A stretch of 62,780 bases of DNA, the filler included, from Dugesia japonica (Eukaryota), in assembly GCA_001938525.1 (NCBI GenBank). It is 6 parts of 6 records of this genome, joined end to end, with 100 filler letters (N's around TTAATTAATTAA, not from the genome) between each part and the next. Parts side by side here need not be neighbours in the genome. Positions count along the whole stretch, not along the records: positions 10,821 to 20,005 come from MQRL01521262.1; positions 20,106 to 32,095 come from MQRL01480009.1; positions 32,196 to 41,549 come from MQRL01609804.1; positions 41,650 to 53,094 come from MQRL01194477.1; positions 53,195 to 62,780 come from MQRL01579262.1; 1 more part is not named here. The stretch is one strand, 5' to 3'. Below, piece by piece: positions 18,884-62,420 of the stretch. Each line of letters begins with the position of its first letter. Positions within the stretch are counted from its first letter, which is position 1. Below the pieces are notes generated by a model. The model was not told the DNA's origin. It searched no databases and saw nothing but the letters and a program-made list of their open reading frames with translations. The translations under genes were made by a program, and so were the position numbers.

Positions 18884-19110
18884 TGTTGGGGTTCCACCTG
18901 AGTTAATGGAGATAGAAAAGTTTGACTGGGAGAAAAGACAGTGGACCCCTCTCAAGAAAATAACCTAAAGTCCCTAATTTAGGCTTTCAGTGCAGAGCGG
19001 TTGACCCCAAACGCTTATTTGGAGTTCAGACTCCTACACCTTTAATTCGGGTTCAAGATTTTCCCACTCTATTCAAATTTATGGAGACAAAGACATGATT
19101 TACAAGCATT
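18884..19110 (-). mobile_element. putative LTR end (R/U5) terminating in ...GGAACCCCAACA
   Basis: Abrupt GC-richer block starting TGTTGGGG on plus, the same octamer as the LTR-like start at 62236; on minus it follows an AATAAA. Confidence 0.5.
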
Positions 19111-19114
19111 TATT

Positions 19115-19920
19115 TTACAAAACATTATTAGACCCAGGGTCAAGCCACTGGGCTGAATCGTCATTCGAAAAGTCAAATGCGGCCTCATCATCATCACTGT
19201 TCCACCTTATCCATGTCTCTAAATCGAGACGGGTGAACAAGTCAGTAATGTATTGTCTTAAAAAATTTAATTTGTTGATGAGTAAGTTGTCTGTGCGGCT
19301 TGCTAGTTCAGCTTGCTTCTTATTTACTCTCTCAAGCTTATTAATGAGGATATTTCTCTGAGTCAAGTGCCGGAGTAGTGATCGTTCGACAATCTCCATA
19401 CTCCAACGATGGTCTGGCATAACTAGAACAGAATTATCATTGAAGTAATGGTCAAGGCATATTTGAAAATAGTAGTAAAACAATTTTATTTAATCATTAC
19501 ACAGAACAAAATTATTGCATTAAAATCAAGGAAGGCATCCAAATCCACTTTTGTCGTCGTCTCTAATGGGAATAACTCAACAAAATATACTAAATCAGTT
19601 TCGTCAGGAGACAATATCTGGTCGGGAGCACAATATACCCATTCAACTGTTTACGGCGCGAACTCTCTCTCACTACAACAAATTAAATAATCGTAAGAAA
19701 ACTATAATAAAGCAAAGCATTATAAGATAGTTGTCAAGGTATCATGATATCGCTAGCTGAAGTGTAGATGTCTTATGAGAAACTAAAGTCCAAACTTGTT
19801 GTGGATAATGCTAGGGCGGGGGTAACACTTAAACAATATTATCCGGTCCAGGAATAAGGGTCGTCGGTAATTGTGAAAGAATCATAATATCCCGGTTATG
19901 AAAATTGATTCTAATGCATC
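19115..19920 (-). pseudogene. decayed multi-exon gene of unknown function (coiled-coil, acidic tail) next to or inside the putative LTR
   Basis: Exon ~19501-19672 (ttgttgtag acceptor, GTAATG donor at 19500) joins in phase 0 to ICLDHYFNDNSV...DPGSNNVL* (ORF 19115..19483); this acceptor reads CAA rather than CAG; in-frame stops upstream. Confidence 0.5.
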
Positions 19921-20005
19921 CCTTATAAGAGCAAAGTTAATTGTGTTAGTAATAATTTCATAATATATATAATGAATCAAAAGGAGAGAAAATATATTAA
20001 TAAAT

Positions 20006-20105
20006 NNNNNNNNNNNNNNNNNNNNNNNNNNNNNNNNNNNNNNNNNNNNTTAATTAATTAANNNNNNNNNNNNNNNNNNNNNNNNNNNNNNNNNNNNNNN
20101 NNNNN
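20006..20105. other. artificial scaffold spacer
   Basis: N44-TTAATTAATTAA-N44. Confidence 0.93.
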
Positions 20106-20804: not shown

Positions 20805-21095
20805 ATATTGTCTACCTTCTCGGACTCGAGTTGTCTAGGCTAAAACCACCATTTTCTGCCGATTTTTCTATAAAACACGGTTTCCACCTGTAGTTTTCTG
20901 TACTATCGCTTGCATCATAAATTCAATCACTACTAAAATTTCTGCCCACTACTTTGCGTTTTTGTCTGCTATTGATTCTCTAATCATACCTTCTCGGACT
21001 CTAGTTGTCTAGGTTGAAACCACCTTTTTCTGCTGACATTTCTACAAAACACCGTTTCCACCTGGAGATTTTCTGGAATTTGCGTTTTTGTATGA
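20805..21095. repeat. ~175-bp tandem duplication
   Basis: accttctcggactc(g/t)agttgtctagg...accgtttccacctg occurs twice (~20813 and ~20988). Confidence 0.8.
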
Positions 21096-21099
21096 TATT

Positions 21100-22810
21100 G
21101 ATGCACTAATCCAGTCTAAGTGTCTAATCAAAGTCTAATCAACTTAAGTAGTGGATCCAATTTTGAAACTGTGCCATTATAGGTTTCTTCGTATTTAACA
21201 TAAACGTAATTGCCTTATGTTCAGTTCGTAGATTGAATCCTCGCTCATATAAGTAGTGACTGAAATGGTTACAAAAATAGAATATCGACAGCAATTTCTT
21301 TCTAGTTATCCAATACCACAATTCGTGGTTATTCATTGCGTAAGATCCATACGCTATCACCCTTTCTATTTCCATTGTTGTCAATTTGTGATAATACAGC
21401 ACCAATTGTATTGTAGCTTACATCCGTATCAAGTATGAATTCTCTTCTGACATCCGGAAACACTAAAATTGGTGACTTCGTTACCGCTTCTTTCATATTT
21501 CTGAATGAATTTTCGCAACTGTCTGTTCATATTAACTTCCTATTATTTACACTGCATAGTTTTTCTAGTTCTCTAATCTTCTTTGCGTAATCCTTTATGA
21601 ATCTTCTGTAATAGCAACATATCCTCAGAAAACTCCTCAATTTTTACCCGCATTTTGGTCTTTCGTATGTCTGTATTACAACCAATTTTGCTGGATCGGT
21701 CTGTACTCCTTTATCACCTATAATATGTCCCAAAGGTTTGATCTCTTTTCTTTGCAATGGACATTTTGACTGGCTCAAACGTAGCCCTGTTTGATGTATT
21801 TTACTAAATACTACATCCAGTGTTTTGTAATGCTCTTCCAAGTTTTCTAAATATATTAAAATATCGTCTAAATACACAGTTGTTCCCTTTGTATTAGGAT
21901 TTAAATACTTCACGAGTTCCTAGAATGTCCCAGTTATATTGAAGCAGCATTGACCTGACTTTGTTGAGAAGGTTGTTTTATCTTTTGACTCTTCATCTAG
22001 GTCTACTTGATAGTAGGCATTACCTTAATCTAATGAAGTGAAGAATGTTGACCCACCCAATCTATCCAGAATCTCTTCGACATTTGGCATCGGAAATGCT
22101 TGTCTTTACGTAATAGCGTTCAGCTGTCAAAATCCAGGCAGAGATCAATGTCTTTCTTTTCTTTTTTCCTCATACATATCAGCGGGATGTCCCATTTTGA
22201 ATTGCACTTTCGTATAATTCCATTTTCAAATAAATAACGTACCCCTTCGTTTATCTTATCTTCTAAGTTCATAGATGTCTTCTGGGGCTTAAAATTTATA
22301 GATTCGCTTTTTGTTGCTATTTTATGTTTGACCAGTTTTGTGCATCCTATGTCCCATTTATCGGCCATAAAGATATTTGAATGTTTCCTTATCAACTCAT
22401 TGATTGTGTCATTTTTCAATTTATTTATTTCAATCATAGTCTTTTTGATATATTTCTTTATCTGTAATAATCCTTCCAAAATACGGCTCGATATTACAAA
22501 TCCGATCTTGATTATCTTTTCCTGCTCTATCTATCTAACTTAGTTCTAATCAAAAACTGATCTGCAACTCAATGCCACCAATTATGCTAAGGATTACCTT
22601 TTCCACAACTATAAAATAAAATCCATCTAGCCACATTGCCGATCCTTACTTACACCTCAATTCTTTATTTGGTACATAATGAACTATCGTTAGCGCACCG
22701 TAGTCTACCCTTGGTTTTTAATAACGGGACATCTTTGAATTTGTTAAGCACATCCATACCCATCATATTAATTCTTGCTCTGGTATTCAGTAGGCATTAA
22801 AACTCTATGT
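21100..22810 (-). pseudogene. Ty3/Gypsy pol remnant: protease, reverse transcriptase, RNase H
   Basis: CLLNTRARIN (decayed LLDTGA); WDIGCTKLVKHKI...LCLDF; TTVYLDDILIY...LGHII...VQTDPAK; RVIAYGS...LRTEHKAITF. Confidence 0.93.
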
Positions 22811-23366
22811 TTTGGATCTTTATCGCAATACTCGGTCTACACTACATTATATCATATCTAACCACACCTTTTCCCAATTCTCCCACTGTTGGTTCCACTA
22901 ACGTTTCCAAAGTCAAAACCTCTATTTCTCATCTAAAAAGAAACCATTATTTTGTATTGTCACAATACAAAGCTGCACATTTAGAGAAGTTTAATCATAA
23001 ATTAAGAGATGCAATGAAAAATCTTTTGTGAATTTAGGAAATAAAACACTAATCAATTGCAACTTAAGAATTTATTGAAGTCATTGGCGTTAAAAAGCCA
23101 AAAATAAACAACTTTCATAAGCAAATGTTCATATATAGTAAAATGATTGAGCCAATAAGTGTAGAAGATGTTAATGTTTCTCTCTTGAAATCAGTATGGT
23201 TAGAAAAGTGATTTTTGAAAAAATTTATTCAGAATTTTGAAAATAATAATTAAAACTCAGCATATATGTAATCTATAGTTTGAAATATGTAGTAACCAGA
23301 TAAGATTATGAATTATGGAATAATACTTGACTAATTCAAAGAAATTCAAAATCAATTGTATACAAT

Positions 23367-25967
23367 AGTTATATCATTTAAAAAATTATATAAAGTTTTA
23401 AAATTGTTATTATTAAATGATATTATTTGTTTAAATAATTCATTATTAATAAATAGTTTTTGTTTAAATAAATAATTATGTAAAGTTTAAGTCTTTTAAC
23501 TAACAACCACGCCAAAATAAGCGTATTGATGAAGAAAAAAAAGATGATCACCAGAAGATTTTTGTAAAGCTTCCATCTTCAAAACAAGAATTGCTTATCC
23601 CAAAATCAAGTTTCTTCGAGGATTCATCTGCAGCAGCTGATGAATGGGTTCAGATGACAAAATAATCTGCTGCGTTTAACTAAATGTAGCTATCATTCGC
23701 GTTTGATATGTTAATGAGACGAGATGAGAAATAATTATGGGTGGAAAATGCAAAGAAGATGTAATTTTGACGAACAAGATCTGCGGAAATGGTATCGTGA
23801 GTCATTTGTGATTTCAGAGACACTGGTGGATAAAATAACACTTTTATCGAAGATCAAACAAAATCCAACTGAAAAGTATTGTAATTTCGAATTAATACAA
23901 TTAGCGCTAAAGGTGTAGAGACAAATGATGAAACCATCAAAATAATTCAAGAAGCCGTAATGCCAAAATTCGCCACGGAAATACGAGGTTATTAGAATTA
24001 ACAAATTATTACATACGTTTCATAAAGTACTATGCTTTACTTGCAGCACCATTGTATATATCGACAACAGGACAAGAAAAGAACATTGAATGGACAAAAG
24101 AATGTGAGGATAGTTTTCAATTTTTGACGATAAAATTGCTCTGATTTTGACTTTCCTAAATAACAGTGGCGAAATGATATTTGATACTTATGCTAGTTTT
24201 AGAGCAATTGGAAAGGTTTTGAGTCAAATAACGAATAATGGATTGGGACGGGTCATAAAATGTGGTTCTCAAACTTTAAACAATCACGAAAAATGATATT
24301 GTGTTACTCACAAGAAATTGTTAGCTCTGCATGAGTTTATGATGTATTTTAAACATTATTTGTACGGCAAGAAATTAAGAGCAAGAACAGATCATAAAGC
24401 ATTAATTCTTATGACGAAGACTAGTAAGCCCATTAGTTCTCAGTTTCAAACACGGATAGCAAATCTAGCAGAATTTAATTTCAATCTAAAATTGCGAAAA
24501 GGAGCAGCTCATAGAAATGCTGATGAACTTTCAAGGATAGGAGCGAGTCTTTGTACCCAATGTTTAACTATACATCAAGATGCCAAAAGGGAACGATCTC
24601 GAGTTAAAAGCATCAACACTTTAGACAAAACAAACTTTGATAGAAACCATATTAAAGAAGTACAGAGAAACGATCCAATAACATGAGAAATCATTGAATA
24701 TATTGAAAATGGAATGATAAATAATAAGCTGAGCACAATGATGACCAAAAGCAAATATTTTTCCATACTTGATTATCAATGAAAGATACAAGAAAAGAAT
24801 AATACTGACAGGAAAATCGATACCCGACCTTATAGATTTCATACACGATGAGTAATGTTATGTCAGAGGTCAAAAATTGACGGAACATTTGAGTGTAAAT
24901 TATATTTAAAAAAACGCAAAGAAATGTAGAACATAAACTAAAAAAGTTTATGATATGTAACATGCGTAAAACTTACACTGGGTGAACAAAGAAAATTCTT
25001 ATTCCAAGAACAGAATTTGAACCATTAGAACAGGTTATTATGGATATCGCTTACTTTCCAGAAGTGAAAACCAAAAGGAATTATGTTCTCGTCTTGGTTG
25101 ACAGGTATAGTATGTTATTGTCATTCGTAGCGTTAAATAGACAAGATGAAACATCGGTAGTTGAGGCAATAAAGGAAAACTGGGCATTAAGTTTTGGTAA
25201 GCCAAAATCATTTTTGAGCAACAGACCAAAAACGTTTTAAGGAAAGTTAATGTGGTCACTTGCAGGGTAGTTTGAGATTCAATAACATCATATTCCACAT
25301 ATCAACATCAATCTAACGGTTTAGCAGAAAGAAATATTAGAACACTGTGAGATATGAAGGTAACAACAATAACGAATGGCTGCTCGAAATCAGGTTGGGA
25401 CAAATTACTTCCACGAATTCAGTTTGTTATGAATGCAACACAAAATATCGATTGGCTCATCTCCTTTTATTATATTTGGAAGAAGAATAGTCTAACACGG
25501 ATTGACACAAGAAGGAAATCTGAAACACGAAGAAAAAAAAACTGGCAGATGAAAATTTACAGAAAAAAGCTTAATAATTAAAAAAATACGAATGTGAAAA
25601 GCGAAAGTCCAGACATTTTGAAAAAGGAGAAAAAGTATTAGTGAAAGTAGACCCGCAAAAGTTAAAGAAAGAAGGTTACGGATATGAAGGTACTTACAAA
25701 ATTAGTAAATTTTTAAGTTCACATCAAGTTTTATAGGTTATGCAAGACTGCTTAAACCCAGAAGACTTGAATGGCTGAAAAATATCGAAAATGAAAATTA
25801 GTAAGAGAAAAGGAGAGAGAGAGCAGTTATATAACATTACTAAAATGATATAAAGTTTTAAATTCTTTATTATTAAATCTCATTATTTGTTTAAATAATT
25901 CATTATTAATAAAAAGTTTTTGTTTAAATAAATAATAATGGAAAGTTCAAGTCTTTTAACTATAACA
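23367..25967 (+). mobile_element. internally deleted Ty3/Gypsy element with two ~140-bp LTRs (23367-23507, 25825-25967)
   Basis: Direct repeats starting AGTTAT; PPT aagagaaaaggagagagaga before the 3' LTR; gag remnant jumps to RNase H (FKHYLYGKKLRARTDHKAL...HRNADELSR) and integrase (MDIAY...VLVDRYS...HQSNGLAERNIRTL). Confidence 0.9.
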
Positions 25968-26779
25968 AAATTTGGAAACAACATCCATTTACCACAACTT
26001 GTATGTAATACTTTTTATTATAGTTAAAATATCATGTATAATTGTTGTATGAAAATAAATGTATTATGAAAGCCTATTATTTTAATTGATATATACTAGG
26101 AAAATTTAACAATAATAATCCTTGGTAAAAATATCATAGTGAAACTCTAGCCGCTGGTCATACAAAAATCAACACATCAGTCAAAAATAATTTAAGTCGG
26201 TTGAAGTGAGTGAACCAGGTAAGATGGGTATAGATGAGTCAGTCAGATTAAATTTGTTCAGGTGAGTAGGTCAAGTAAAATGAGTTTAGGTAAAAATAAA
26301 TCAGTCAGTCAAAAGTGGTTGACCAGCAGAAGGGTTACTGGTCAGCTGTCTTAGAGTGCTCACAACTATCTACTATTACTTATTCCGACACTCAATTTTA
26401 TTAAAAACTAAATTTTTCAAGATTTTTAAAGTAAAATTTCTTAACTTTGCCGTAAAGAGGGACATACATTATTTTTATTTGTTTTTATAGTGTAATTTGA
26501 CCTCGTGAAAGTTACCACCTGCTAATTTTAAAATGTTTAATGCTAATTTTTTATTTTACTACTACAAACTATATTTCATAAGATAAATAATTATAAAATA
26601 CAAGTATTTAAATATTTAAATATCTCAATTCCTATTGGGTGAGATTATTAATTAATAATTATTTCCTCATAAACCATTTATTCACTTTATAAGAAAACCT
26701 AAAAATATAAGTTAATTTAATATTTTTAAAGCATTGAAGAAATCAAAAGGTTCAAGGTTGATGGCGCCAGCCATAATAG

Positions 26780-26845
26780 TTTTACAATTACAAATATTGC
26801 GAGAACAATGGTTAGACTTAACCATTGATCGTATTTTAATGAAAG
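26780..26845 (-). mobile_element. Penelope-like repeat copy C (tail only)
   Basis: ttttacaattacaaatattgcgagaacaatggttagacttaaccattgatcgt matches the family tail. Confidence 0.65.
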
Positions 26846-27516
26846 GTTAATTTAATTTAATATTTTTAATTTTTGGATTTCTAATTATGAACTTAGTGAA
26901 TAGATTTCTCTAGGTTTCTGAAATGAGATCTACTACCCTTGATAAATCATAATATGTGAATATATAGAAATAAATTATCAAACGTTTTCAAAATTGTTAT
27001 GAATGAAATATTTAAACAATAACTTTCATAAGGAATTATTCTACGAAACAAATATTTGATGTATAATCGTTACGGTTAATTTAAACGTTTTTCGAATTTT
27101 AAATTCTATAATTTTTTAATTTATAACTGAACTTGAAGTAACATAAAGTTATAACTCCATGTTAAAGTTGTTGTGAGCACGCATGAGATCATTAAGAATT
27201 GTGTGCCATTTGTCGTATATTTTCTAATTTCTTCTTTAAAACCTTTTTGTATAATTAGCTTGAATTGTTAAATATTTTTCATTTATTTTTTGTAAAAGTT
27301 AATAACTTAATTTCATACCTTAATTTTTATTATAATTAATTTGTATTTGAGACTGGCATTGTAAATTTCTAGTATAAATATTCAATTATGATTATTATCA
27401 AAATTCCCAGATGCTGACAATAAATATGTGCTTTTCCTATTTCACAGTTTGCTACACGATAACTTACAACACAGCTTCAATCTAATACGATTAATTGCAA
27501 AATTAATTGCGGTAAC

Positions 27517-28045: not shown

Positions 28046-28049
28046 GGCA

Positions 28050-34015: not shown

Positions 34016-35455
34016 GTGTTACTTAATTTAATGTTGAACACAACATCTGGTGTCAGAAATAACAGTGACAGTTGTAATCACTGCACGTTAAGAATTCCAC
34101 CGTTTATGCGCAATGTCAAACTCTGGTTTCTGCAAGTGGAGAACTCTTTCAAACTNGCCAGGATTACTTCAGAATCGACCAAATTCCAACATCTAATATG
34201 CAATTAGCCAGTGAAAATTCTCGAAGAACATGCAACATCTCTTAAATATTCCGGTGATCGCAGCTACACCGATTTAAAAAATGCTCTTTTGGAGAAATAT
34301 GGGTTAACTCCGCAGGATGCAATTCAAAGATTTTAGAACATCCAATTCTTGGATGAAAAATTTCCTTCTACTGCTCTACGAAAACTCCAAGCCTTTGTCA
34401 AATGCTTTGACAGGAATGATGATTTGGAAACTAATGTTCTTCTCAAAACCAATTTGAATCCATGATGCTTGCCGATATTCGAATTTTGCTACTTTGCAAG
34501 AATTTTCTGACCTTATCAGAAATGGCGAAATGTGCTTATAAGCTCATCAAGATTTCAAATAAAAGAGCGTCGAGCTTGTTCAAAGTGCAAGATAATTTCA
34601 TTAAAAAATTAAATAACAGCAACAATTATGAATTGAAATCGAAACCATCCGATCAATTATGCTTTTNNNNNNNNNNNNNNNNNNNNNNNNNNNNNNNNNN
34701 NNNNNNNNNNNNNNNNNNNNNNNNNNNNNNNNNNNNNNNNNNNNNNNNNNNNNNNNNNNNNNNTAGAACCAAGCACTGTTTCCTCAACAAGTGTTTATAC
34801 AACACTAAACTCGTGCAGGCATAAATTTATTTTGTTGATTTTTATATTGAAAAACCAGCAGTAGCATTCCTTGTTGTCAGGGGAGCTTATAAAAGTATTC
34901 TTCCAAAGAAAATGTTTAAGCTGGCTAGCATTTCAAATCACTCATTAGTGTCTGAAACAAACGATCCAATATCAAGTTATGGTCTCAGAACACTTTCTTT
35001 CAGAATCAGTAACCACANCACCCCAATGACTTGGGAATTCATTGTTGCAGATGTATCCACACCTATATTGGGTGCTGATTTCTTTGCATATCACGATGTT
35101 GATAATAACTGCAACAGTAAATGCATATCATTTTTTATTTTCGGCTGAACTATACCTGGACATTCTAGACAATATGATATGATAATTGCAAATCAAGTGA
35201 TAAAAAATGATCATTTTAATATACAGATGAATATTAATTCGAAAGGTAATCTATTAGCACAAAAATCTCGACGATAATTTGGAGACGAATTCGATGCAGT
35301 AAAAACAGAATTCGATCGTGTTCTAAGAGCTGTAATAATTCACCCTAACAACAGCAAGTGAGCCTCACAACTTGTTGTCGTTAAAAACAAGATGGATCAT
35401 GGAGACTCTGTGGAGACTACAGACAATTAAATGAGCTAACCATACCAGATAAATA
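34016..35455 (+). pseudogene. Ty3/Gypsy gag-protease-RT remnant
   Basis: LRIPPFMRNVKLWFLQVENSF...ITSESTKFQH (gag); FLVVRGAYKSILP and WEFIVADVSTPILGADFF (protease); DGSWRLCGDYRQLNELTIPDK (RT). Confidence 0.92.
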
Positions 35456-35505
35456 NNNNNNNNNNNNNNNNNNNNNNNNNNNNNNNNNNNNNNNNNNNNN
35501 NNNNN

Positions 35506-37021
35506 GGGGGCTCTACCATTGGAACGAGAAAGAAAAGTAATTTATTATTTATTTCTTATTTATGTTATAATTATTCGTAAACTGATAAACGGAAAACTGG
35601 GGTGATGCTCATCACTTGCTGGCTGGGCTGGTATTGGTGATCATTACGATCCAGAGATCCAACCATATGATTTGAAAGTTATTTATGCTCATAATAGATA
35701 TGATTTGAAAGTTACTTGAAATTACGAATTGAAAACTTATGATAGAGTTATTATAGAAAATACGGAGGAGATAGTAATGATTAATAAAAGAGATAAACTA
35801 GTATTGGCAATAAGGAAATGGATGATGTGGTTATAGTTAAATCATTACATTGTTAGAATACGGAAGACAAATTTAAATATGTTAAATGATATTAGGTGTG
35901 GTGGTTGAGTCTCATCTTAATTTTAATCTAATGTTAATGTAATATATCAATTATTCATGTCGTTGAAAATATTAATCAGGTGTTTATTTTTTCTTATTTT
36001 ATTGCATTATAATTCATAAATCATTCATATTTTAAATTTTTGTTTATGATTTTAATTTGGTAAATGCAAGGTAATCTTTTAGAAAGATTATATAGTCGAT
36101 GGATCAATCGTCATTTGAAGGGTAATGGGTCTCTGGAAGTATAATAACTGAAGGAACTATCAAGATGAAATTTCACAAGATACAAACTACTTAATGAAAG
36201 AGGGTGATGGTGACATGTCACTAATGTTATGATAATACCTAATGTTATGATATACCTAGAATACTTAAATCCATCACGAAATCGGTGGAAATCAACGAAT
36301 GGCAACAGGATCGGGAGATGGAATTAGTATCTCTACTGATTCGAGAAACGGAGCTGAATAGACATCAACAACATCTCATCCGGACAATGCGGGCGACGCA
36401 AACGAAAGCCGAGGAATACGCCAAGTTATCAGAACGATTATCAACCAATTACTNCTACCATTAGACGAGACAGAGAAAGATACAGCAGTATGACTATTAT
36501 TTCATCAGTGATATTTTGTTAATCAGCATTATAGTTTCACTCTTATCCTTTTGCGTTTTTATTGAATAATTATACAGAACAAGTTTACACCATCACAACA
36601 AAAAGAGAGTAAACTCGATAATGAAATATTCTTAATCTTTAATTATAAACCGCTTATAAATTACATTAAAATTGCGAACTTAAAAATATAACGGATATTA
36701 TACTTCTCAATAATTTCAGTGTCAAAGATAACAGCAGATACATCAATGGCCGATATTAGAAAGAAATGGTGTTCCATCCAAATAAAATTACAAGCAAAAA
36801 TTGTCGAACTACAGAATAGGAACTCCACTCTACACGTAAAGAACGATAAACTTAAGGAGTGAGATCTTGCTCTGTCGCAATCATATCAGGCGATGGCTGA
36901 CATTATCAAGGCTTATGCGGACAGAGAAGGAGTTCTGATAGCAACAGTAAGAACATTAACACAGGTATCCAGACCAAAAAAAAGAAGAAATAGAGGGGAA
37001 GTCATCGATTTGGACGATTGA
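35506..37021 (+). pseudogene. decayed multi-exon coiled-coil gene of unknown function upstream of a PPT/LTR-like boundary
   Basis: GC-richer blocks bounded by intron-like AT-rich GT...AG segments; peptides IPRILKSITKSVEINEWQQDREMELVSLLIRETELNRHQQ and KITADTSMADIRKKW...RPKKRRNRGEVIDLDD*; AATAAA at ~37038. Confidence 0.45.
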
Positions 37022-37168
37022 ACGATTTGTATTTAAAATAAAGTTTAGTTATAAGAAATGGTTGCAATTCATAATTTATTAATAATAAATCGAAATCGAA
37101 CTAAATCAGAGCCAATGAAGCCAAAATTGAAAGTATAAGACGGGATACAGCATAGTCCCACTGAATTC

Positions 37169-37420
37169 GGGAATGGGGGATCGTGTTGCTAGAGAAAGCA
37201 ACGCAAATTTCTGGGGTTACTAAGTATCACCCTTCAAACAGAAATCAACATTAAGAGAAGGAAAAATTTTAATTATAAAAATCAGACGAACAACAATCAG
37301 AAACAAGAGAATCAAGAGAAAGTGTCNACAAGAAAGAAATCAAAAAAATAATCAAAAACCTCGAAGTTCAACATATTGTTATAAAATGAAAAAGCCATTC
37401 AAAAACGGAAAACAAATTCA
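37169..37420 (+). mobile_element. putative polypurine tract (37169-37180) and LTR start (TG at 37184)
   Basis: ttcGGGAATGGGGGAtcg|TGTTGC; shares gaacaacaatcagaa with the LTR-like sequence after 62236. Confidence 0.5.
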
Positions 37421-39600: not shown

Positions 39601-39843
39601 GTGAATTTATTTTTGATGAATTTCTTTTATTAAAATTTTTCAGAGTTGACACAAATGCTTAACATAGTGTGAAATTTAGTTAAAATAAAAAATTATATCA
39701 CGAAAACTATATTAATACCAAAAATAATTCATCTGAAGGACAATTGCGATTATTGCGAGAATAAATGTTAAACGTAACCATTGATCGTGTTTCAGAATTC
39801 ATTAAAATTAAAGCTTTGATTAACATTTGTTTTTTCTATAATT

Positions 39844-39880
39844 CAATTCTATATTTCGACTTTGTCTTCGTCAGGAGTTG
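39844..39880 (-). ncRNA. minimal type I hammerhead ribozyme, opposite-strand partner
   Basis: Minus strand CAACTC-CTGACGA-AGACAAAGTC-GAAA-TATA-GAATTG; one stem I mismatch. Confidence 0.7.
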
Positions 39881-39897
39881 ACTTTTTGAATTGAAGT

Positions 39898-39934
39898 CAA
39901 TTCCTGACGAAGACAAAGTCGAAATATAGAATTG
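39898..39934 (+). ncRNA. minimal type I hammerhead ribozyme (Penelope-type)
   Basis: CAATTC-CTGACGA-A-GAC(aaa)GTC-GAAA-TATA-GAATTG: perfect 6-bp stem I, CUGANGA and GAAA cores, 3-bp stem II, minimal palindromic stem III. Confidence 0.75.
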
Positions 39935-43059: not shown

Positions 43060-45360
43060 ACCAAATAGATTATCACTAGGAAATTCCTTAACAAATAGAC
43101 CGTAATGGACTGAAAATTGATCTCATTGAGTAAAATATTCAACTAAAATCATTGAAAACTAACTGAATATAATAAAAAATAACCAATAATTACCCCTAAT
43201 TAACTATAAGTAACTAGCTGAATATACTAAAATTAGCAATTATTGCCTCTAATTAACTATAATCAACTTTGTTGATGAAATTTTCAATAAAGTTTTTCGA
43301 TAAAGTTTCGATAAAGTTTTCTCTAAAACATAAAATTTATTAACATTTTATTATTTAAGGTCAACTAATTTTTATGTTACCCGGAGTGACTTGTATTTTT
43401 ATCATATGAGATTAACCTATTTAAATAAAATAATTGACCAAATTATTCTTACCAAGAAAATTATTACCCAAATTAATCGAAAAATAACCCTTGTGAATAT
43501 ATAATTGACCATAACCATTCATGGTTTGAGTTCCATCAACCAAACTATGAGCACTTTTAACTAAACTCTGAGCACTGTCAACCAAATTCTGACAGCTGTG
43601 AGTAAATAATTGACCAGAAATTAATCAACTTAACTATTTCTAAAGAAATAATTGACCAATTTGCCCTAAAATTACCCAAACTGACCATTACTAAGTAAAT
43701 AATTGACTGAATTCATAGAACAAATAATCCTTGTGGGCAAATAATTAAATAAGTTTGTCCATACCAAGAAAATAATTGACCGACATTACCTAAACAATGA
43801 ATATAATTCAACCAGACTGATGAAAAATTTGACTGAATCACCCAAAAGAAACCCAAACTGATCAATCACGAGGAACATTTGATCAAATTAACCTAAAACC
43901 ATCCAAGTTTTCCGAGATTTGACCTAACCGATGAGAAATTTGGTCAATATTAGCTAAACCGAGTAAATAATTGACTAAATTGGTAAAAACTGACCCAAGA
44001 TGACCAATCTGGTGGAAATATCAAACCAATTCACCCAAAAATTACCCAAACCAAGCAATTCCAAAGAAATATTGGACGAAATTTATTTGAACCAACCAAA
44101 AATTGACCTCATTCGATCTCACCAAGAAAACCTTCAACTAATTTCACATAATCCAATAAAAATAGACGTTATTCCACCTCACCTAGGAAATTTTGAACAA
44201 AAACTACCTAAAAACAATCAAAAACCTTTCTCATTCGACCTCACCGAATAAATTCCCAACTAAAACCACAGGAAAATACATAGCCACTTAATCCTATTAC
44301 GTAAAAATCTCGACGATGAAATTCGTCTTATTACATAATTTGTGTGCAAATAATTTCCTAACTAAATACACATGGAAAATCCATAGCCACTTAATCCCAT
44401 TTCGTAATATTACCTAATATGATATCATTTTTGAAACTTCCCAACTAAATGTATTAGGATTAAATTTAATTACGTCACGGAGGGGGGGGGGTTACTGAAT
44501 ATGAGCTGGCTATATGCGCTATTATCTATCTACTACCAAATTCCCCAAAAATTTCCATTCCCGAGGAAAACGTTTACTGAATCATCCAAATATTACCCAA
44601 ACTTTCCATTCCCGAGGATGTTTTCAACCAGTATTTCCTAAATCACACAAAATTTGACCAATATTGCCAAACCTGAGTAAATAATTAGCCAAATTGTTCA
44701 AAACTGACCCAAATTGACTATTCTCGATGAAAATTTCCAACCCAAATCAACCATTTCTGAGAAAATATTCAAAAAAATCATCCAAAACTGACCAATGTGA
44801 GTAAATAAATGACTAAGATTGTCCAAACATTACCCAAACTAACCATTCTCGAGTAGATAATCAACAAATTTTGCCTAAACCGAGTAAATAGTTAAACAAA
44901 TTTTTTTTAACAGAATCGTCTAAAAATCAACAAAATTAACAATTCTCGAGGGAACTTTCATTTGAATCGTTTAAAACGAACTCAAATTTACTATTCTCGA
45001 GGAAATAATTTTCCAAAATGCTCAAAAACTACCCAAACTGATTTTAGACAAAACATACTTAAACCCAATCAAAAATTGACCTTATTTGACCTTACCGAAA
45101 TAATTTCCAACTAAAAAGCCTGAAAAAATTCAACTGCTTAAAAAGCCTAAAATATTTTCCCAAATAATTACAGGGAAAAATAGTCTCAATCATCTTACAT
45201 AAAATTTCACCGAAAAAATTAATCTAATGACATAATTTGTGTGCAAAACTTTTCCCAACTAAATACACAGGAAAAAATAGCCTCTCTTAATCCTATTACT
45301 TAAAATTCACCGACGAAATTAATCTCATGAAATAATTTATGTGCAAATAATTTTCCCTGC
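43060..45360. repeat. degenerate A/C-rich modular repeat array
   Basis: Recurring aaataattgacc, acccaaactgacc and attctcgag motifs; ~105-bp higher-order unit repeated at ~44260-44400 and ~45150-45355. Confidence 0.8.
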
Positions 45361-47626: not shown

Positions 47627-49063
47627 TTAACTTTCGAAAATGTCATGTTAAATGAGATTTTGAGTCTTGTGCAAAGAATTCTCCACTGTTATCACTTATG
47701 TGGATTTCAATATTGTTTATACACGATGGAGAAATTGGATTTTCAACAATTATTAATACTTTTATTTTTTAATACTTTTCCAATCATACAGATGTCAACA
47801 AAGGAACACTAACATCATCAACTATATCAGGTTTAACAATGGTACTATAGATGAACATTTGCTGATGAAAGTACAACAATTTCGGTTTATTAAGTACCGT
47901 AAATTCAACACTTCTTAAAAATGCGTTTGTCTGACTAATACAGAGGTTTTGTTAGGATTTTATCAAATTTCACACTTTTAATATTATCTAATAATGAAAG
48001 TCTGAATGATTCATCCATAAAATAAAAAAAAAGCTTAGATAAAAAAAAATATATTTGTAAAAAAATTCAAATTTCTGACACTTGTCTTCTTCAGTAATTA
48101 TTGAGAAAATTTTTAATTATTTGAAAACAAAATATATAAATTTTTTAATTATTGTAATTATTGAGAGAATTTTAATTATTGAAAAAAAGTTTTTTTAAAG
48201 TATTGTAATTAGTGAAAATTTTTCTGAGAATTCTTAATTATTGAAAAAAATTATAATTATTGTAATTATTGAAAATCAAGTTAATCTCATGTTTTTTCTG
48301 CGAAGTTTAGAAATATAGCCTGTTCTTAATGTTTTCCAGGTAATATGATGATTTTATGGTTTATTTTGAAAGTGTTTGAAGACTTCACTTTCTTTCTGTC
48401 TTAGATGTTTTTGAATTCTTGTACGAATGGTTCTGCATGATTCTCTTTTATATGTATCCTTACATAAGATGAAGATTTTTAAATATAATATAAGAATTTT
48501 CAGTAAATTATTTATCAAACTCATCTTTTTCTTTTATGTACAAATCATCTTTAAAATTAATGATTTTTGTAGTTTCTATCAAATTTTAATAATTTTATTT
48601 TTATGGTTTCTATAGAATCATTGGTTATTAATGTTCGGAAGTGAATGAATCAGTTTTAGACTGTAATATTATCATTTAAATTATTAAATTCAAATCGTTT
48701 TACATCCTCAAGATTCTCAAATTTCAATAAATGACCATTATACTTTGATTAAATATGTGGGTATTCTTTTCCAGATATTTGAAATATATAATATTCATCA
48801 TCAATAACACTCAATCATTTTTCTTTATTGTCAATTATTACTAGTATTTCCTTCAGTTCATTCTTTATTATTACGTATTAAATAATAAACTTGCTGTTAA
48901 ATAGAAAGGTTTAGTATAGATAGGTGAAATCCATAAAGGCTACTTCCCTTTGACTATCCACATAAATTGAAATTTGAAGCACGACAATGAAATTACTAGC
49001 ATTGTTATCTGGATTAATAAGTAAACAACTATTACTCAGTAATAGCGTATAGAAATTGTTCAT
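47619..49063 (-). pseudogene. Polinton/Maverick minor capsid (penton) remnant
   Basis: N-term MNNFYTLLLSNSCLLINPDNNASNF...REVAFMDFTY; C-term MFIYSTIVKPDIVDDVSVPLL...IEIHISDNSGE...LT*HFRK; interrupted by an AT-rich tandem repeat at ~48095-48275. Confidence 0.8.
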
Positions 49064-49069
49064 TTTGCT

Positions 49070-49965
49070 CCTTTTTCTTCTTTGTTTAATTTACTATTTA
49101 CGATGTTGATATCCATATTGAATTTTCATAGCTATGCTACTTTACACATGATTGTTTATCCTTTCCTATTCTTTTTGACCATATAATCTTTTCTATTATA
49201 AATACTGTATATTGTGGAATTACTTATAACTCTTGGTCAATGAATTTTCCAACAATGATAATTTCTTCATGATCTTTAATCGCATATATGATGGGTTTCA
49301 GTTTGATGTTGATTTTTGATATTTAAAACTCTTCATCAATTCAATTACTATTGAAATTCATGATGAATAGTGAAGCTTATATTTTTGAGATTCTAACTTC
49401 TTCACCAACTTTATATTTTAATTTCTTGTTTGATTTTGGTTGTTGTTTAAAAGCCATAATTTTAATAAATTATCAGCTAATGTATCCACGGGTTTTGCTC
49501 TTTTTAGTCCCTTTTATGATTATAACCATCGATTAGTTTTGCTAATACATGTATTCAGGTCTTATTACCAATATGTACAAAGTAAGCTTTCAATTCATCT
49601 CTCAATCTTCGATTAAATATTTCTAAATATGGAGCTTTGTACTAAGAAAATACAGAAAAATAGTTTACTTTGGGGTGTAAAATAATATTCTTGACTTTTG
49701 AGTTGAAAGATTCCTCACCCAAATAAGTTTGCAAATTGTTTGAATATGTTGAAACATTGACTTAATCGCAGTTTTCATTTCATTAGAATATTTAGTTTTA
49801 CAGAAATATCTCTTGAAAATCTGCTAAATACTTGTTAAAATATACTTTTATCCCTTATTAAGTCTCAAAAAAGGTATCATTTCCATCAAACTCATTTGCC
49901 ATAAATCATCAATATCAAATGTTTACTCGATATAATGTCGACTTTTACAACGACTTGGTATGAAG
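49070..49965 (-). pseudogene. Polinton/Maverick retroviral-type integrase + chromodomain remnant
   Basis: DIDDLWQMSLMEMIP, KYILT, EIFNRRL, KYKVGEEVRISK, PIIYAIKD...GKFIDQEL, FIIEKII; many stops and frameshifts. Confidence 0.85.
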
Positions 49966-50249
49966 CACAACGGTTTATGTTGGAAAATCCCTGTTAAGAT
50001 GAGAATGAATTTATTGATTAAAATTATCTTTTCTAATTGATAATTTATTTCCATTAATGTTTTATTCATGAACAATTATATATTGATAGTAACAAGGTAT
50101 TCATTATCATTACATCGGGACAACTATTGATTTATTATTATCATCTTAATTGTTTTCAATTCCAGATTAATAACTTTTAATAGCCTTTTAATAAATATTA
50201 TAAGGTTTTCCATACTGTCTGGGTCACCCAGGGCCCAGTTCACATGTTA

Positions 50250-50550: not shown

Positions 50551-51039
50551 AATTTAAATATTTTATTTTATTTTATAAATTATTTTTACCAACCATTCAA
50601 CTGGACTAATAAATAACACGAATTATGCTCCAGATTTTAAGAATTATATGAAAAATATAATGAAATCAGGTGTAATTTGTTGATTTTATGAAATGTCCAC
50701 TTTTTATTCTATTTATTATTAAAAATGTATACTTTTTATTCTAATTATTATTAAAAATGTATACTTTTCACATAATTTAACTTGTGAAATTTGAATTTAT
50801 GTCTTTAATTATGATTTTATTGTTTCCTTTACGATTAATTTGATGACTATTAATTAATGATGAATTAAATTTTTGATGATTAGTTTAATAAATACAATTA
50901 ATTTAATCACAAATTTAATGTTATCAATTTAAATTTGATACTTATAAACCTTATCATGGATCAACAAAAATAAAGTACTTGCTTTTTCAATTTACTTAAT
51001 CAAAGATAAAGATTGTTGTAAATTTTGAACAATGTTTCA

Positions 51040-51285
51040 AATTTCATTTAAAATTAAACCCTCGATCAAAAAAATTTTTTGTTGGTTTTTTGAGATTGAC
51101 TTGATATTTCGACTTTGTCTTCTTGAGCAAAATAGTCAATTCCTAACGAAGACAAAGTCGAAATATTGAATAAATCTCAAAAAACAAAAAAATTTATTTT
51201 TGGTCGAAGCTTTGATTTTAAATGAATTCTAACGATCAATGTTTACGTCTGACAATTATTCTCGCAATAATTGCAATTGTAAAAT
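51040..51285. mobile_element. palindromic Penelope-like repeat copy E with mutated hammerheads
   Basis: caattc-CTAACGA-agacaaagtc-GAAA (51137 onward, core G>A), inverted partner at ~51100-51125 and family tail. Confidence 0.75.
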
Positions 51286-51978: not shown

Positions 51979-52138
51979 AACATTTGGTATTAATGATTTA
52001 TGGCAAATGAGTTTGATGGAAATGATACCTTTTTTGATAATTAATAAGGGATTAAAGTATATTTTAACAAGTATTTAGCATATTTTCAAGAGATATTTCT
52101 GTAAAACTAAATATTCTAATGAAATGAAAACTGCGATT
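51979..52138 (+). repeat. inverted duplicate of Polinton integrase segment 49764-49923
   Basis: Near-identical ~160-bp reverse complement. Confidence 0.9.
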
Positions 52139-53094
52139 TACGTTTCAGTAAACAATCCAAAGAAAAAAGAAATCAATAAAACAAAATTAAAAAGATATTA
52201 GACAAATAAATTGGATTCTTTCTCTTAAATTATTCTAAATTGCAGATATATAAATTTTCAACCGAAAAATAAAATAAAAAACAAAATTTTGTTTTAATTT
52301 TTCAATTGATATTCACAAAATATATTTCAAATTAATTTTACAAAAATATTATTTTCACAAATTCCAACAAATATTTATAAATAATTTTAGTTTTAAATTT
52401 TGTTGTTATCAAATATTGATTTTGCATTTGATTAGCATTTGATTATTTAGGATTACTATTTTTGGATTATTTATTTGATGGAACAAAATTAGATCATTTC
52501 TTCCTGTTGGTTTATTCCATCCTCGATAATTGGGATAATCATCTTGTTTTACTGTTTCACTTGTATCAACCCGTCCATTCATCTGATTGAATATATCAAT
52601 TGTGATGGCATGCTTGAATGGCCGCAAAAAATCTTTATCAAATTCTCCTCTCATTAATAGAAAACAAACATTAACAAAATCATAACCAATCCACACACTC
52701 AAATACATTATATACAATATCATAAGTTTTAGAGTTACACTATTTAATATTGTAACTTTTTTATTATTAAAAATTTCTGTATTTTTTTATTTTTTTTATG
52801 TAAATTAATTTTTAATGGTTTTTAATAATTATTAAGTTAACATTTCTGTTATAAAGTATATATATATATGAAAAATTTTAGATATTAAATCAGAGAAGAA
52901 ATTATAATAATATTACCTATATTAAACAACTTTTAATCGTTAATTTACCAACTAATTTGTTTCAATTCCATTTAATACATTTATTTTAAAATTTATTTTT
53001 AATTTAAGATTATCATTTTTCTAATACTTTTATTGATTATACTATTGATTTTTAAAAGAAAATTTTGTTTTCAAGCATTTTTCAGGAAATTTTT

Positions 53095-55299: not shown

Positions 55300-56120
55300 A
55301 TCACATAGGAATTACTGTATCCCCATGGTTTTACCGTAGCACGTAAGCTTTAAAACACATGGGTTTACTATATTCATTGGCTTTATTTAAACACATTGAG
55401 TTTACTTTATTATGTGGTCTTTACTGTGTCACATAAGCTTCGTTGAAACACATTAGCTTTACTGTGTCACATTGGTTTACTCTATCAATTGGCTTACTCT
55501 ATACATTGGTTTACTGTATCACATTAGCTTTACTTTAACACGTAAACTTTACTGTGTCATATAAGCTTCATTGAAGCACATGGGGTTTTACTGTATCCTT
55601 TGACTTTATTGAAATATATGGGCTTACTATGTAACATTGGCGTACTCTATCCATTGGCTTACTGTGACCATTGACTTTAGTGTAATACTGTGATACATAT
55701 CCTTACTATTTATATTGATTAATTGAAACTCGTGGGTTTTACTGTATCACATCAGTTTTCTGTACACATTTGCTTAATTTATACACTTGTTTACTCTATT
55801 TACTGGCTTTCTATATCCCTTCTTAAACTCTGAAAAATTTATGAATTAAGGGAATTAATGGCAATTTAATAAAATTGGTCTATATTATTACATTGTTTTC
55901 TGCGATATTACTATAACCGTTAGTCTACTATTTAAATACAACTGTATTACTTTATCATATTGGCTTACTGTACTAACATGCTTAATCTATTCATTGGTTT
56001 CACTCTATCATATTAGGTTACTGTACTTATTTGCTTACTCTATCCATTAGCTTTGTATATACAGACGCATATAGACTTTGTTGTGTCTATTGATTAATGG
56101 ATTGATTTACTGTATTTACT
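55300..56120. repeat. degenerate ~17-18-bp minisatellite (cattggcttactgtat)
   Basis: Dozens of ttact(g/c)t(a/g)t / cattgg units. Confidence 0.85.
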
Positions 56121-58005: not shown

Positions 58006-60952
58006 AATAAAGTAAATATAGTCACTAATTATACTGCATTTATTTTATATATAGTCCTTTAATATGCTTCTTTTGTTTATGTTGTATCCCTTCTCACTTA
58101 ATTTTCGACCATTTTCTCCGACTTTTAGTCATTTTTTTAATTTTTTTTTTTCACCATTTAATCTAATTACTTAATTTCTACTTATTTTCCAATATTTACC
58201 TTTATTTAGTCATATTTGTAGTCATTTTTCAACATTTACCCTATACATCTATATTTTTCTCTAATTTTTGTTGGATCTTAATCTTTTAAATAGTAACATT
58301 TAAAGATAAAAATAAACATTAAGACTTAGTGATGGTGAGAAAAAGCTAATATGACACGTTTCTTATTTAAAATAATATAATAATTTCAATATATTTTAAT
58401 TGTCTGATAATCCGATGAGTCATAAAAAATTTTTAAGGGTTTGTGATGAGTCATACAGTACCCCTAAATTTTTTGGGGGGTTTCATGGGGTACCTCCAAT
58501 TTTTTTTAGAAAATTTTGTTTTTAATTTTTTTTTAAATTTTTTTTTATATATTTTTTTTTTAAAAATTGTTTTTTAATTTTTTATATAAATTTTTTTTAT
58601 AGATTTTTTTTATAAATTTTTTTTATAGATTTTTTTTTAAAATTTTTTTTTTTTAATTTTTAAAATTTTTTTTTGTCTTGCCTATTTTTGAAATTTTATT
58701 TTTTAATTTTTTTTGTTTTTCGATGAGTCATACTTTTCTCGAAAATTTTTCTATGTCAGAACAAAGACATCATATCCCTCCCTAAAGATTTAAAGAGAAA
58801 ATTTATTGACTCAATCTATCCTGAGTCAAATAAAAAATGATGTTAATTATGTTATTAAAATTAATGTTAATAAATAAATTTTAGTTTACTAAATTGTTTT
58901 CTTTTTTTTATTAATCATTATAGCAAAAATGTTTTATTTTAACAAAAAAAATTATAAAAGTTTATTCCCAAAAAAAAATTAAAAGACACAAAATATATTA
59001 TAACTGACTTGAAAACATGTCACTTGTATCAGTCATCTCATTAGGATTCTAATGAAATCAAGTTTAATACAATTTAACAGAGAAATGATATCAAAAACTT
59101 TTTTTTAAAAATTTGAAAGTTCTTTGTTCTTTGTTTTTCAATTTCCTTGTAAAGCATGCATTTTTTGATATGGGTTCTTTAAAGAATAAATAGGTAGTTT
59201 ACATTTCTCTATCGATTTTTATCAAAATATTTTCAAACATTTTATAATTTCGTGTCTATACATGGTTTTTTATATTTAAAATTTAAAATATTTAAAAACT
59301 TCTCACCAATACGTCAGATTGAAATTCGGTGATAGTACTAATGTCCATTATCTAAATACAATTCCAACGATACCAAGTTTGTCACCATAGCATGTATATA
59401 TGCGTTTTAAATTCAATTTTTAAAATTTAAAAATGTCTTTGTGATAGTGCGCCACTATCTAACTACTCTAACAAAACTACATTTTTAACTATAAAAAAGC
59501 GTTTTTTGAATATAGTCCTTTAAGCAATGTATATATACTTATGAGATAACCAGAAGAATCTAAAGTTTCAGCGGAAAAAAATCAGAAATAAGAAATTCAA
59601 AGAAGGAAAAGAGTAATAAAAGCTTTTATCAGAACAAAGAAAATAACGAATAGAAATTAGTTCATTAGGCAAAATAAGAAAATCATGTTGAGTTAGTTAT
59701 TAAAGAAAGAGAAAATTATTTAAATGAATTAAATAGTGGAAGAAAAACGACGAAATTAAATTAATTCTAGACCAGAAAATAAAAATGAACATTAAATTAA
59801 TATTTAAGAAGAAAATAAAATAAATCATATGAATTAAAATGATTTATTTTAAAGAAGAGAATTAAATTTTTACAAAAATTAGAAAAATGAAGGTTTCTAT
59901 CAATTTAAAATTAACAGTTAAGATAATTAATGTCAAGAAAAAATCTGGGAGTTCAAAGTTAAAAAATCATAGCGAGACTAGGAAAGAAGATACAAGAGTC
60001 TGAAGGTTGACCAACCAAACGATAAAAAATGAAAAATTAACATACTTACTTGAAAAGTTTTTAAATAAAAATGAAGACATTTATCAAATAATAATTTTAA
60101 AACAAATATATTTTGAAATTAAATTGAATCAAATCTAATACAATATTAATTTAAAATAGTAGATAAATTANNNNNNNNNNNNNNNNNNNNNNNNNNNNNN
60201 NNNNNNNNNNNNNNNNNNNNNNNNNNNNNNNNNNNNNNNNNNNNNNNNNNNNNNNNNNNNNNNNNNNNNNNNNNNNNNNNNNNNNNNNNNNNNNNNNNNN
60301 NNNNNNNNNNNNNNNNNNNNNNNNNNNNNNNNNNNNNNNNNNNNNNNNNNNNNNNNNNNNNNNNNNNNNNNNNNNNNNNNNNNNNNNNNNNNNNNNNNNN
60401 NNNNNNNNNNNNNNNNNNNNNNNNNNNNNNNNNNNNNNNNNNNNNNNNNNNNNNNNNNNNNNNNNNTATTAGGTTCATGAATAATTCGTTAGAATTTCAA
60501 TGAATGAAAGAATAAATTTATATTACAAGTTGATGCTTAATTGGTTAATTAACCACATTTGAAGGTCCATTGTCAAAGAAATTTTTATATTAAGGTTAAA
60601 GTATTTGAATAATTAACCAGTTATTAATTGTAAACTATATATTCAGTGTGAATTATAGGGCTGTCCGAACTTATGCACCTCAATAGAAAAGTAGACACCG
60701 CAGTCACTATGAAAGATATAGCCAAATAATGAGGCATATGTGACATTTGGTACCAAGAAAATTAAAATAAAAAGGTTTATGGGCAATATAAGTTTATAGT
60801 GGAAAATACTATGTACGATAACATAGCATTAGAAGAAGGGGGACAAGAACTCTCGCTATCAATTACCAAATAAATATATAAAATATATATATGTATATAT
60901 GAATATATGTGTAACTATGTATAACTCTTATTAATTGTTTTCTTTTTAGAAA

Positions 60953-62038
60953 ATGGATCCTGAATTAGCCGCAAGAAAGATTCATTTACGCAATACATGT
61001 AAAATAATTCTATATGAAAAACATCGCGTCCTAAAATACCCATTAAATTACGGTTAGGATAATGTAGGTAAGATTATTTACTATTTATCCGAAGATGCTG
61101 AATGCCCTATTTGTTACGAATACCCAGAAATGCCACGAATCTTCGAATGTGGACATTATTTCTGTTTTAACTGCATACTCAAGACTTTCATTCTCTCCAA
61201 TTAAAATCTAGTCCCTTGTCTAGTTTGCTGTTCATGTAGAGTAGATGCTTTCCATCCTAAAAGAGTGTCCTTCATAAAGATGCCACCCCTAAAAATAGGA
61301 CAACAGCTTAGTATGATATTAACCCTCAAAGTTCCCTTCAATAACTGCACAAGAATTGCACATCACCTGCCCCTATATTATCAAGAAGATATTCTCAAAT
61401 TTGGTGACCTGGTTGGTAAATATAATAATATTACTATTCAGAGAGATGTCCTCTCAATCAGCCAAATACAGAATGACCTGTGCACAACCAGAATAACAAA
61501 TCACCCGAAAAGGGATAAAGACAATATGCTGCTACGCCTCAACAACGAATTAAGAAGATTCAACAACAGAATCAAGATACAAGACATATTCGAATTCGTC
61601 AAAAGTTTCTGCAACAATAAAAACGCTTCCCAATTCAACCTCCTCCGCCACTGAGATATATTGTCACCCCAGCTATATTACCAAACTGACCGTTATCATA
61701 ACCTCTACATTAATTATGAACAACAACAGAAAATACTCCAATCATCAATACTTAAAATACCTTACGAATTCGTGGTAGAAAAAAAATCAATAAAAACAGA
61801 AATTGTACAGACCTGTCATTCAGTTTTGTACACAGGGCAAAGAATCATTATCATCTCAATTGACATTATTCGTTCTATGGTACTTGAAAATCTACCCAGA
61901 TACGCAACCCTGTTTAAACATTATGATGAAACCTTGAGAAAAGAAAAGAGAGAACAACTGAAACTAAAAAAGATAGCTAATCACTGTAAACAATCGAAAA
62001 AAAAAGAACCAAAAATTTATAACTTGACCAAAAAATGA
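60953..62038 (+). pseudogene. divergent intronless RNF10/Mag2-like C3HC4 RING E3 ligase with in-frame stops
   Basis: One frame from ATG 60953: LRNTCKIIL...YG*DNVGKII...ECPICYEYPEMPRIFECGHYFCFNCIL...PCLVC...KIGQQLSMIL...LYYQTDRYHNLYI...LRKEKREQLK. This parallels RNF10 (ANCQF...WDFVEQV...CPICLYPP...CGHIFCWACIL...VGDTITMQL...FYQAEDGQ...coiled coil). Stops at 61055, 61202, 61652, 62036; no frameshift; tttttAG acceptor 3 nt before the ATG. Confidence 0.7.
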
Positions 62039-62198
62039 CAGCCCTTAGAAAAATTCTCAAGACCTACATCTCCATATCCCACTTTACCACAAATCGAAGA
62101 GGAATTTAACCCATGTATATTTAATGAACCCTGCAATAATCAAATACCCTCGGGATTAGACGATATGGGCTGTCCATGCTTTACCCTATTTCTTACTC

Positions 62199-62420
62199 AA
62201 GATGCGGGTGCATCTTCTTTCGGAAGGGGGACATTTGTTGGGGAAAACCAAAATCCAAATATGACATTCACATGAACACACTCAAAACAACTCGCATGCA
62301 CACATACAAACATAATCAGAACATCCAGCACCTCAACTAACCTACCCAAGATCAACAGAGAACAACAATCAGAATCCAAGATCATTATTCAATTAATTAG
62401 TGATCAACTCCCAATGTGAA
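62199..62420 (+). mobile_element. putative hairpin + polypurine tract (62222-62231) + LTR start (TGTTGGGG at 62236)
   Basis: AAGATGC-gggt-GCATCTT hairpin, then ttcGGAAGGGGGAcatt|TGTTGGGG, the usual Ty3/Gypsy 3' junction layout. Confidence 0.55.

Follow-up and report, generated by a model that had tools for sequence, protein, structure and literature searches.

The window analyzed here, 62,780 nucleotides of Dugesia japonica DNA, consists of six unlinked scaffolds (GC 20-33%) in which decayed transposons are abundant. Three sites in it, namely 18884 (B), 37184 (D) and 62236 (F), had been taken by an initial annotation for boundaries of long terminal repeat (LTR) elements bearing accessory genes, and these do lie on separate scaffolds, as given by the spacers at 10721, 20006, 32096, 41550 and 53095. 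At F, a decayed RING gene derived from RNF10 runs into a probable LTR start, and the following features were identified there.

60701..60856, plus strand: repeated upstream stretch, probably the end of the element's preceding part (summed contig depth 283-441)
60937..60949, plus strand: pyrimidine tract and AG resembling a splice acceptor, three bases before the ATG (sequence)
60953..62275, plus strand: the F cargo, a C3HC4 RING gene derived from RNF10, free of introns, shortened at its N-terminus and Cys-rich in its tail (Pfam, HMMER, HHalign)
62198..62215, plus strand: 7-bp hairpin before the purine tract (fold z -2.9, reached by 2 of 200 shuffles)
62222..62231, plus strand: run resembling a polypurine tract (sequence), in the bin of the F element that is shared most widely
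62236..62780, plus strand: probable 3' LTR start (TGTTGGGG), A/C-rich and then T-rich, ending at the window end and containing a 15-mer at 62360-62374 (sequence, repetition)

The frame of the F cargo is interrupted by four stops (61055, 61202, 61652 and 62036) and continues across the junction to 62275, and the Pfam domain zf-C3HC4 was found in it above cut-off. A word-index protein search with the F protein had passed none of 1771 candidates before a full HMMER search found 114 matches, the best of which, P0001 (E 2e-28) and P0002 (E 2e-16), aligned over about 350 residues at 27-28% identity. The named matches after these two were RNF10 proteins of flukes, a mite, a sea slug and a tardigrade (18 of the 114 were checked). 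By HHalign, three cargo proteins of the RNF10 type matched 16 RNF10-like sequences at 99.94% (E 6e-37, 333 columns). The match begins at column 124 of the host RNF10 profile and the F RING at residue 51; the host N-terminal region is missing from the F cargo in this comparison. All eight zinc ligands (C51, C54, C66, H68, C71, C74, C89 and C92) were invariant in five of five aligned rows. In a FastTree phylogeny of 30 hand-picked rows, the three cargo proteins clustered (support 99) beside trematode RNF10s. The predicted fold of P0002 was poor (predicted local distance difference test score 41), and solved structures matched the RING part alone. As judged from these alignments, the F cargo descends from host RNF10, with homology extending well past the RING. 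Upstream of the acceptor, the stretch 60857-60934 is AT-rich, poorly shared and in a low depth bin, while 60701-60856 gave no Pfam match below E 0.1.

A metagenome scan for the context of the relative returned a single locus, L001 (6.1 kb); viral_contigs gave no match to P0002. In L001, the C-terminus of an integrase with a membrane-anchored tail is followed after 250 nt by the intact RNF10-like gene P0002, preceded by an acceptor-like AG in the same layout as at F, and then by a 717-codon frame (L001:3723-5876). The L001 integrase (L001:700-1804) showed 38-69% identity in local alignment to its best 11 polyproteins, 45-69% for the ten closest, and grouped with these 11 with a support of 94. 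Among the seven polyproteins of this clade that were scanned, three (P0132, P0135 and P0136) have a Monjiviricetes fusion domain ahead of the protease, which in P0136 lies between gag and protease, and two (P0128 and P0129) have ankyrin repeats. P0141, P0161 and P0163, labelled by their fusion domain without domain order, were excluded from the env argument. The one Burro-like polyprotein with a scored gag had Retrotrans_gag, and a Burro-like alignment run against viral_contigs yielded, out of 45 stretches, one locus with a distant pol (28%). In this clade (L001 and P0127-P0137), the integrase frame was also seen to extend into a long tail with a hydrophobic segment at its end; behind the integrase, the tails of P0128 and P0129 include ankyrin repeats and an aspartic-protease domain.

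Burro/GYPSM1 elements, to which this clade was compared, are giant gypsy-like LTR elements of planarians, exceeding 30 kb and with an internal region of up to 25 kb. As described in a review, their hallmarks are ankyrin repeats and an env that stands in frame between gag and pol within a single polyprotein (PMC6431247). The L001 clade has these hallmarks as far as its predicted domains go, i.e. it resembles Burro by architecture, and not by membership with named Burro sequences. Burro, as the initial annotation had suggested, was the right comparison to draw. Residues ~130-330 of the 717-codon frame resemble an RNase_T/DEDDh exonuclease (Atlas 0.93, a lead, with no Pfam match), and this frame is probably a second captured gene in a Burro-like element. 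Because an intact relative of its cargo, 24% identical, sits directly behind a gypsy integrase of a clade with Burro hallmarks, F probably marks where a Burro-like LTR element has its 3' end.

Reads from four runs were placed on 60467-62780 at 80% likeness, giving a depth that is not equal to copy number. The two contig sets over this interval comprised 1723 and 1669 records, many of them from the repeat at 60467-60700. This unrelated, very high-copy repeat lies directly upstream of the F element and has a summed depth above 100,000 in both sets. Over the F gene itself, up to 30 variant contigs were found per site, with a summed depth of 20-1700, or 20-2670 across F as a whole, as compared to 6-9 for contigs identical to the window. 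Since the variants far outweigh the identical contigs, F is a single diverged member of a repeated family. Depth peaked at about 2660 in 62183-62260, and the bin with the 15-mer was locally raised (322/289 versus 138/108). Certain contigs skip most of the RING gene, with joints at 60832-61962 and 60982-62046, and one contig of the F family skips 62260-62359. RNA reads on F numbered 141 and 19, on both strands and nearly all less than 95% alike, and relatives of F are thus weakly transcribed.

The second site, D, combines the remains of a small gypsy element with a cargo-like region and a junction resembling that of F.

34040..34058, plus strand: LTR-end-like ACAACA, to 34045, and TGGTGTCAGAA at 34048-34058, which resembles a primer-binding site (pattern scan)
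34070..35520, plus strand: decayed small-gypsy gag (DUF7041, E 1e-12), protease-like stretch and start of a reverse transcriptase (piece at 35385-35450, E 5e-4)
35521..37183, plus strand: cargo-like region of short decayed frames, mainly 36299-37021 (translation)
37169..37189, plus strand: G-tract, then TGTTGC at 37184 (sequence; hairpin not significant)
37288..37302, plus strand: 15-mer common to F (sequence)

The protease-like stretch and the break of the reverse transcriptase at ~35520 were placed by eye from known motifs, and the upstream element is presumably CsRN1-like. The frame 36299-37021 has six stops, four of them within an AT-rich, intron-like middle (36488-36718), and the last part of the cargo looks like a coiled coil and has basic and acidic motifs. 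No homologue was found among 150 candidates, a weak blank as the sensitive library was not searched with D, and Pfam gave E about 0.1 at best. The region matched none of 120 pol polyproteins; a reading of D as an integrase end was tried and found no support in profile and phmmer searches with these 120. The 5' LTR end of D and the DNA after its junction did not match (30 of 300 and 62 of 100 shuffles scored as well). Most parts of the D cargo are G-over-C, whereas the coding strands of F and L001 are C-over-G. The best reading of D makes it the 3' end of another element, one that was either joined to the small gypsy or inserted into it, and we put the chance that its junction is an LTR terminus slightly above even.

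At the third site, B, two features were recognized.

18884..18891: TGTTGGGG at a step in GC content, possibly the terminus of an element, at either end, or else an 8-mer that arose by chance (sequence)
19115..19420, minus strand: open reading frame (ORF) of 101 codons, open, behind an acceptor-like AG and with AATAAA directly after the stop, pointing toward 18884 (translation)

The initial annotation had equated this terminus with those of D and F, and this did not hold. The 8-mer does occur at 18884 and 62236, as had been claimed, and a third copy that had gone unmentioned lies at 28621 on the minus strand; three were seen where 0.27-0.64 are expected by chance. B has neither a G-tract nor the 15-mer, its hairpin is not significant (164 of 200 shuffles), and its geometry is opposite, the ORF being downstream of and antisense to the motif while the D and F cargo are upstream and sense. 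B DNA matched neither D nor F (290 and 109 of 300 shuffles as good), and its ORF had no Pfam match and no usable Atlas match, again a weak blank as the sensitive library was not searched with B. Some element boundary at 18884 is suggested because GC steps there from 0.14-0.22 to 0.40-0.50. Read on the minus strand, B could from its sequence be the right end of an LTR with a poly(A) signal after the ORF, or the boundary may lie inside the LTR-like sequence of another element. As an LTR terminus B is doubtful; it would be a separate boundary, in a different slot from F and D. The stretch 18505-18860 (plus strand) is A/C-rich and then T-rich, in a style like that of the sequence following the F junction (a likeness equalled by 4 of 100 shuffles).

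The resemblance between D and F was borne out in part. TGTTGC begins at 37184 as reported, the 15-mer GAACAACAATCAGAA occurs exactly twice in the window (37288 and 62360), and a purine tract stands directly before the TG terminus at both sites and is absent at B. Among 3000 Markov simulations under each of six models, 1-13 gave a shared exact word of at least 15 in 200-nt windows, as did 21 of 20000 random pairs of windows from different scaffolds, and P for the 15-mer is about 0.002-0.004; TGTTG followed two of 15 G5 runs (0.13 expected), and the D/F alignment score over 250 nt was reached by none of 300 shuffles. Tract, TGTTG and 15-mer together thus exceed chance, while the likeness itself ends at a single 27-column block with nothing else alignable. 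No alignment was obtained for the 150 nt upstream of the two junctions (195 of 300 shuffles scored as well), an extent of 580 nt is aligned equally well in 12 of 100 shuffles, and five other isolated cross-scaffold 15-mers with at least four G+C occur in the window. The tract positions 62223 and 62230, both G at F, have a different base in nearly all relatives, so part of the likeness is private to the copy in the window. A hairpin had been described before both junctions; the one at F stands, the one at D does not (z +0.53, 143 of 200 shuffles). The composite motif matched once in viral_contigs, within a phage gene, a match that was rejected as chance and because of which the motif is not diagnostic alone.

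Taken together, we find it probable that the three sites derive from different mobile elements in an AT-rich animal genome, and that F represents, in a decayed state, the 3' end of a large Burro-like Ty3/gypsy element carrying an RNF10 cargo. A planarian host agrees with the base composition, the Burro-like relatives and the flatworm RNF10 matches. The proposal that a large LTR element bearing genes has F as its cargo gains from RNF10 descent, repetition and a relative behind a gypsy integrase. A number of observations weigh against our reading. No pol remnant was found on the 9.6-kb scaffold of F, and in L001 the RING gene precedes another ORF, not an LTR. The RING frame reads through the F tract, so the G-run may be codons. 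Depth drops about 20-fold, to 108-138, in the bin after 62260, and bins after the junction reach 99-340 as against 611-2668 in the three preceding ones, which is not the abundance looked for in an LTR. None of the 160 RNA reads was at least 99% alike to F (two were at 95-99%), and they showed no spliced joints and no piles of starts or ends; with reads on both strands, mostly below 95% and without joints, no strand, start or splice call is made. The branches of the cargo tree are long, so that false joining is possible and a flatworm donor is at most suggested. Diverged LTRs below the 80% limit may account for the missing copies, and the depth profile fits a conserved hairpin, tract and terminus followed by a fast-changing U3, yet without the excess expected of an LTR. 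That F is an LTR terminus we nevertheless hold to be fairly likely.

The depth drop and the frame running through the tract would also suit an internal junction, at which the Burro-like RING gene ends and a spacer leads to another accessory ORF, much as a 330-nt spacer and a further ORF follow the RING gene in L001. The likeness between D and F would then be a small shared motif or chance, as in the phage gene. We regard this as improbable, given that hairpin, purine tract and TG coincide at the most shared spot, that no ORF of at least 70 codons starts within 500 nt after the F stop and that D has the same arrangement. The account of the initial annotation, in which all three sites belong to a single family of large LTR elements whose accessory slot varies, is less probable still. 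It draws on the shared motifs of D and F, on the acceptor and ATG anatomy at all three sites and on the F family itself, where the contig lacking 62260-62359 makes the spacing to the 15-mer vary and where the 3' end is more widely shared than the RING body; the contigs that skip this gene may equally well be deletion derivatives. No LTR can be aligned across all three sites, B has the wrong geometry and lacks the tract, the D/F alignment stops at 27 columns, and the strand bias of the D cargo is the reverse of that in F and L001. The cargo proteins of B, D and F are unrelated (158-409 of 500 shuffles as good), and the gags differ as well, with a DUF7041 gag upstream of D and Retrotrans_gag in the scored Burro-like polyprotein. 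Modular cargo is supported at the level of the clade, and a single family with a variable slot is not. It is very unlikely that F is a processed pseudogene or part of a host RNF10 paralogue family free of any retroelement, with the motifs as background. Such an origin would agree with the lack of pol on the scaffold and with an integrase link that depends on one relative at 24% identity. It sits poorly with the nearness of F to P0001 and the element-borne P0002 rather than to any host RNF10 (among the 114 matches), with an N-terminal trimming and acceptor that are the same in P0002, and with the many diverged copies.

In the reading we prefer, F would represent the order last accessory gene, hairpin, polypurine tract and 3' LTR start. 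RNF10 would have been captured from a processed host message as an intronless, N-terminally trimmed copy, and then kept in diverged elements of the Burro-like clade. Splicing to the acceptor that precedes its ATG may give a subgenomic RNA from which the cargo is expressed. RING E3 ligase action is proposed since all eight zinc ligands are kept; alternatively, the protein may be a decoy on the RNF10 pathway, and either action would ease translation of the very long RNA of the element. That it acts on the ribosome is a tentative idea, another ubiquitin target being as likely. The sequences at F speak for RNF10 descent, kept ligands, repetition and a position behind the integrase in a relative. 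D would be the 3' end of another LTR element, at most distantly related, with a similar tract and one short LTR motif. A more far-reaching version, which we think rather unlikely, has an env-bearing Burro-like clade capture RNF10 once and keep it as a spliced gene, less than 30% identical from one element to the next, within a modular cassette that follows the integrase, where it acts on uS3 ubiquitination or 40S turnover in favour of the element's own translation. The RNF10 gene would then stand beside an exonuclease-like gene in one lineage and overlap the 3' LTR in another, and D and B would be further modules of related elements.

Elsewhere in the window, short palindromic repeats resembling miniature inverted-repeat transposable elements occur on five of the six scaffolds (263-394, 12109-12242, 26773-26886, 39740-39992 and 51037-51285). 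A direct repeat pair of ~140 nt (23366-23506 and 25824-25968) flanks a decayed gypsy RNase H/integrase remnant, which makes a small element that has short LTRs and no cargo; it is nested next to a pol remnant in inverted orientation (21046-22500). A TRAF-type MATH frame at 52409-52786 (minus strand; Pfam E 2e-5, below cut-off) is unlinked to F, D and B and is a piece of a host TRAF or of element cargo, the latter being considered because Burro carries MATH. Decayed frames at 47700-50200 (minus strand) and 51979-52138, which by eye we take to resemble a Polinton-type integrase and a GIY-YIG-like piece, are accompanied by a 160-nt inverted duplicate (96%). Apparent host exons at 8900-9465 (plus strand) encode an immunoglobulin-like domain and then a transmembrane segment, basigin-like by eye, and degenerate short-unit arrays lie at 43500-45330 and 55340-56060 (~17-nt units in the latter).

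Cargo-bearing giant LTR elements are already known in planarians. The cargo listed for Burro in the accessible part of the review, mostly within the polyprotein, comprises AIR1, Smc, MATH, BIR, ankyrin, BCL2, Ubi2, dUTPase and midasin (PMC6431247). MATH, BIR, BCL2, ankyrin and Ubi2 were all absent from F, D and B in the frames scanned, and an in-frame env is absent from the window. The AIR1 label usually reflects gag zinc knuckles. Our elements resemble Burro in the L001 integrase clade, with its in-frame env ahead of the protease and its ankyrin repeats, in ubiquitin-related cargo and in the many decayed copies, as reviewed for Dugesia japonica; they differ in that the same part of the review names no RNF10-type gene behind the integrase, although its AIR1 label mentions RING (PMC6431247). 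Neither is RNF10 cargo described in the accessible parts of PMC8532177, PMC11410931 and PMC6338049, and no paper linking RNF10 with retroelement cargo was found in the literature listings searched; the original 2018 Burro genome paper, supplements to the review or Repbase may already annotate the ORF. The bdelloid LTR elements Juno, Vesta and TelKA carry family-specific ORF3s, typically on spliced messages, and are thus alike in their extra ORFs and, with respect to L001, in exonuclease cargo (PMC5408684). Their cargo is env, a GDSL esterase, a DEDDy exonuclease or coiled-coil/transmembrane proteins, the word RING being absent from that paper (PMC5408684). A small gypsy with DUF7041 gag resembles D in gag, primer-binding-like site and reverse transcriptase start, and differs from D, in which the reverse transcriptase breaks into 1.7 kb of unrelated cargo-like DNA.

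Host RNF10 monoubiquitinates uS3 and releases stalled 40S subunits (PMC11604940). Planarian giant LTR elements are known for apoptosis- and ubiquitin-related domains, and a ribosome quality-control E3 would extend this list. If true, a retroelement would have a direct handle on host translation surveillance, so far known mainly from herpesvirus deconjugases; the more limited proposal, that a single family swaps three genes, does not stand and would add little. The RNF10-cargo idea is testable, since an intact natural relative exists in P0002. Compared with host RNF10 and yeast Mag2, the F cargo shares the C3HC4 RING and the downstream core over 333 columns, while it lacks ~90-120 N-terminal residues and the host tail, has a Cys-rich tail instead, shows ~18-24% identity and is intronless, repeated and, in this copy, broken.

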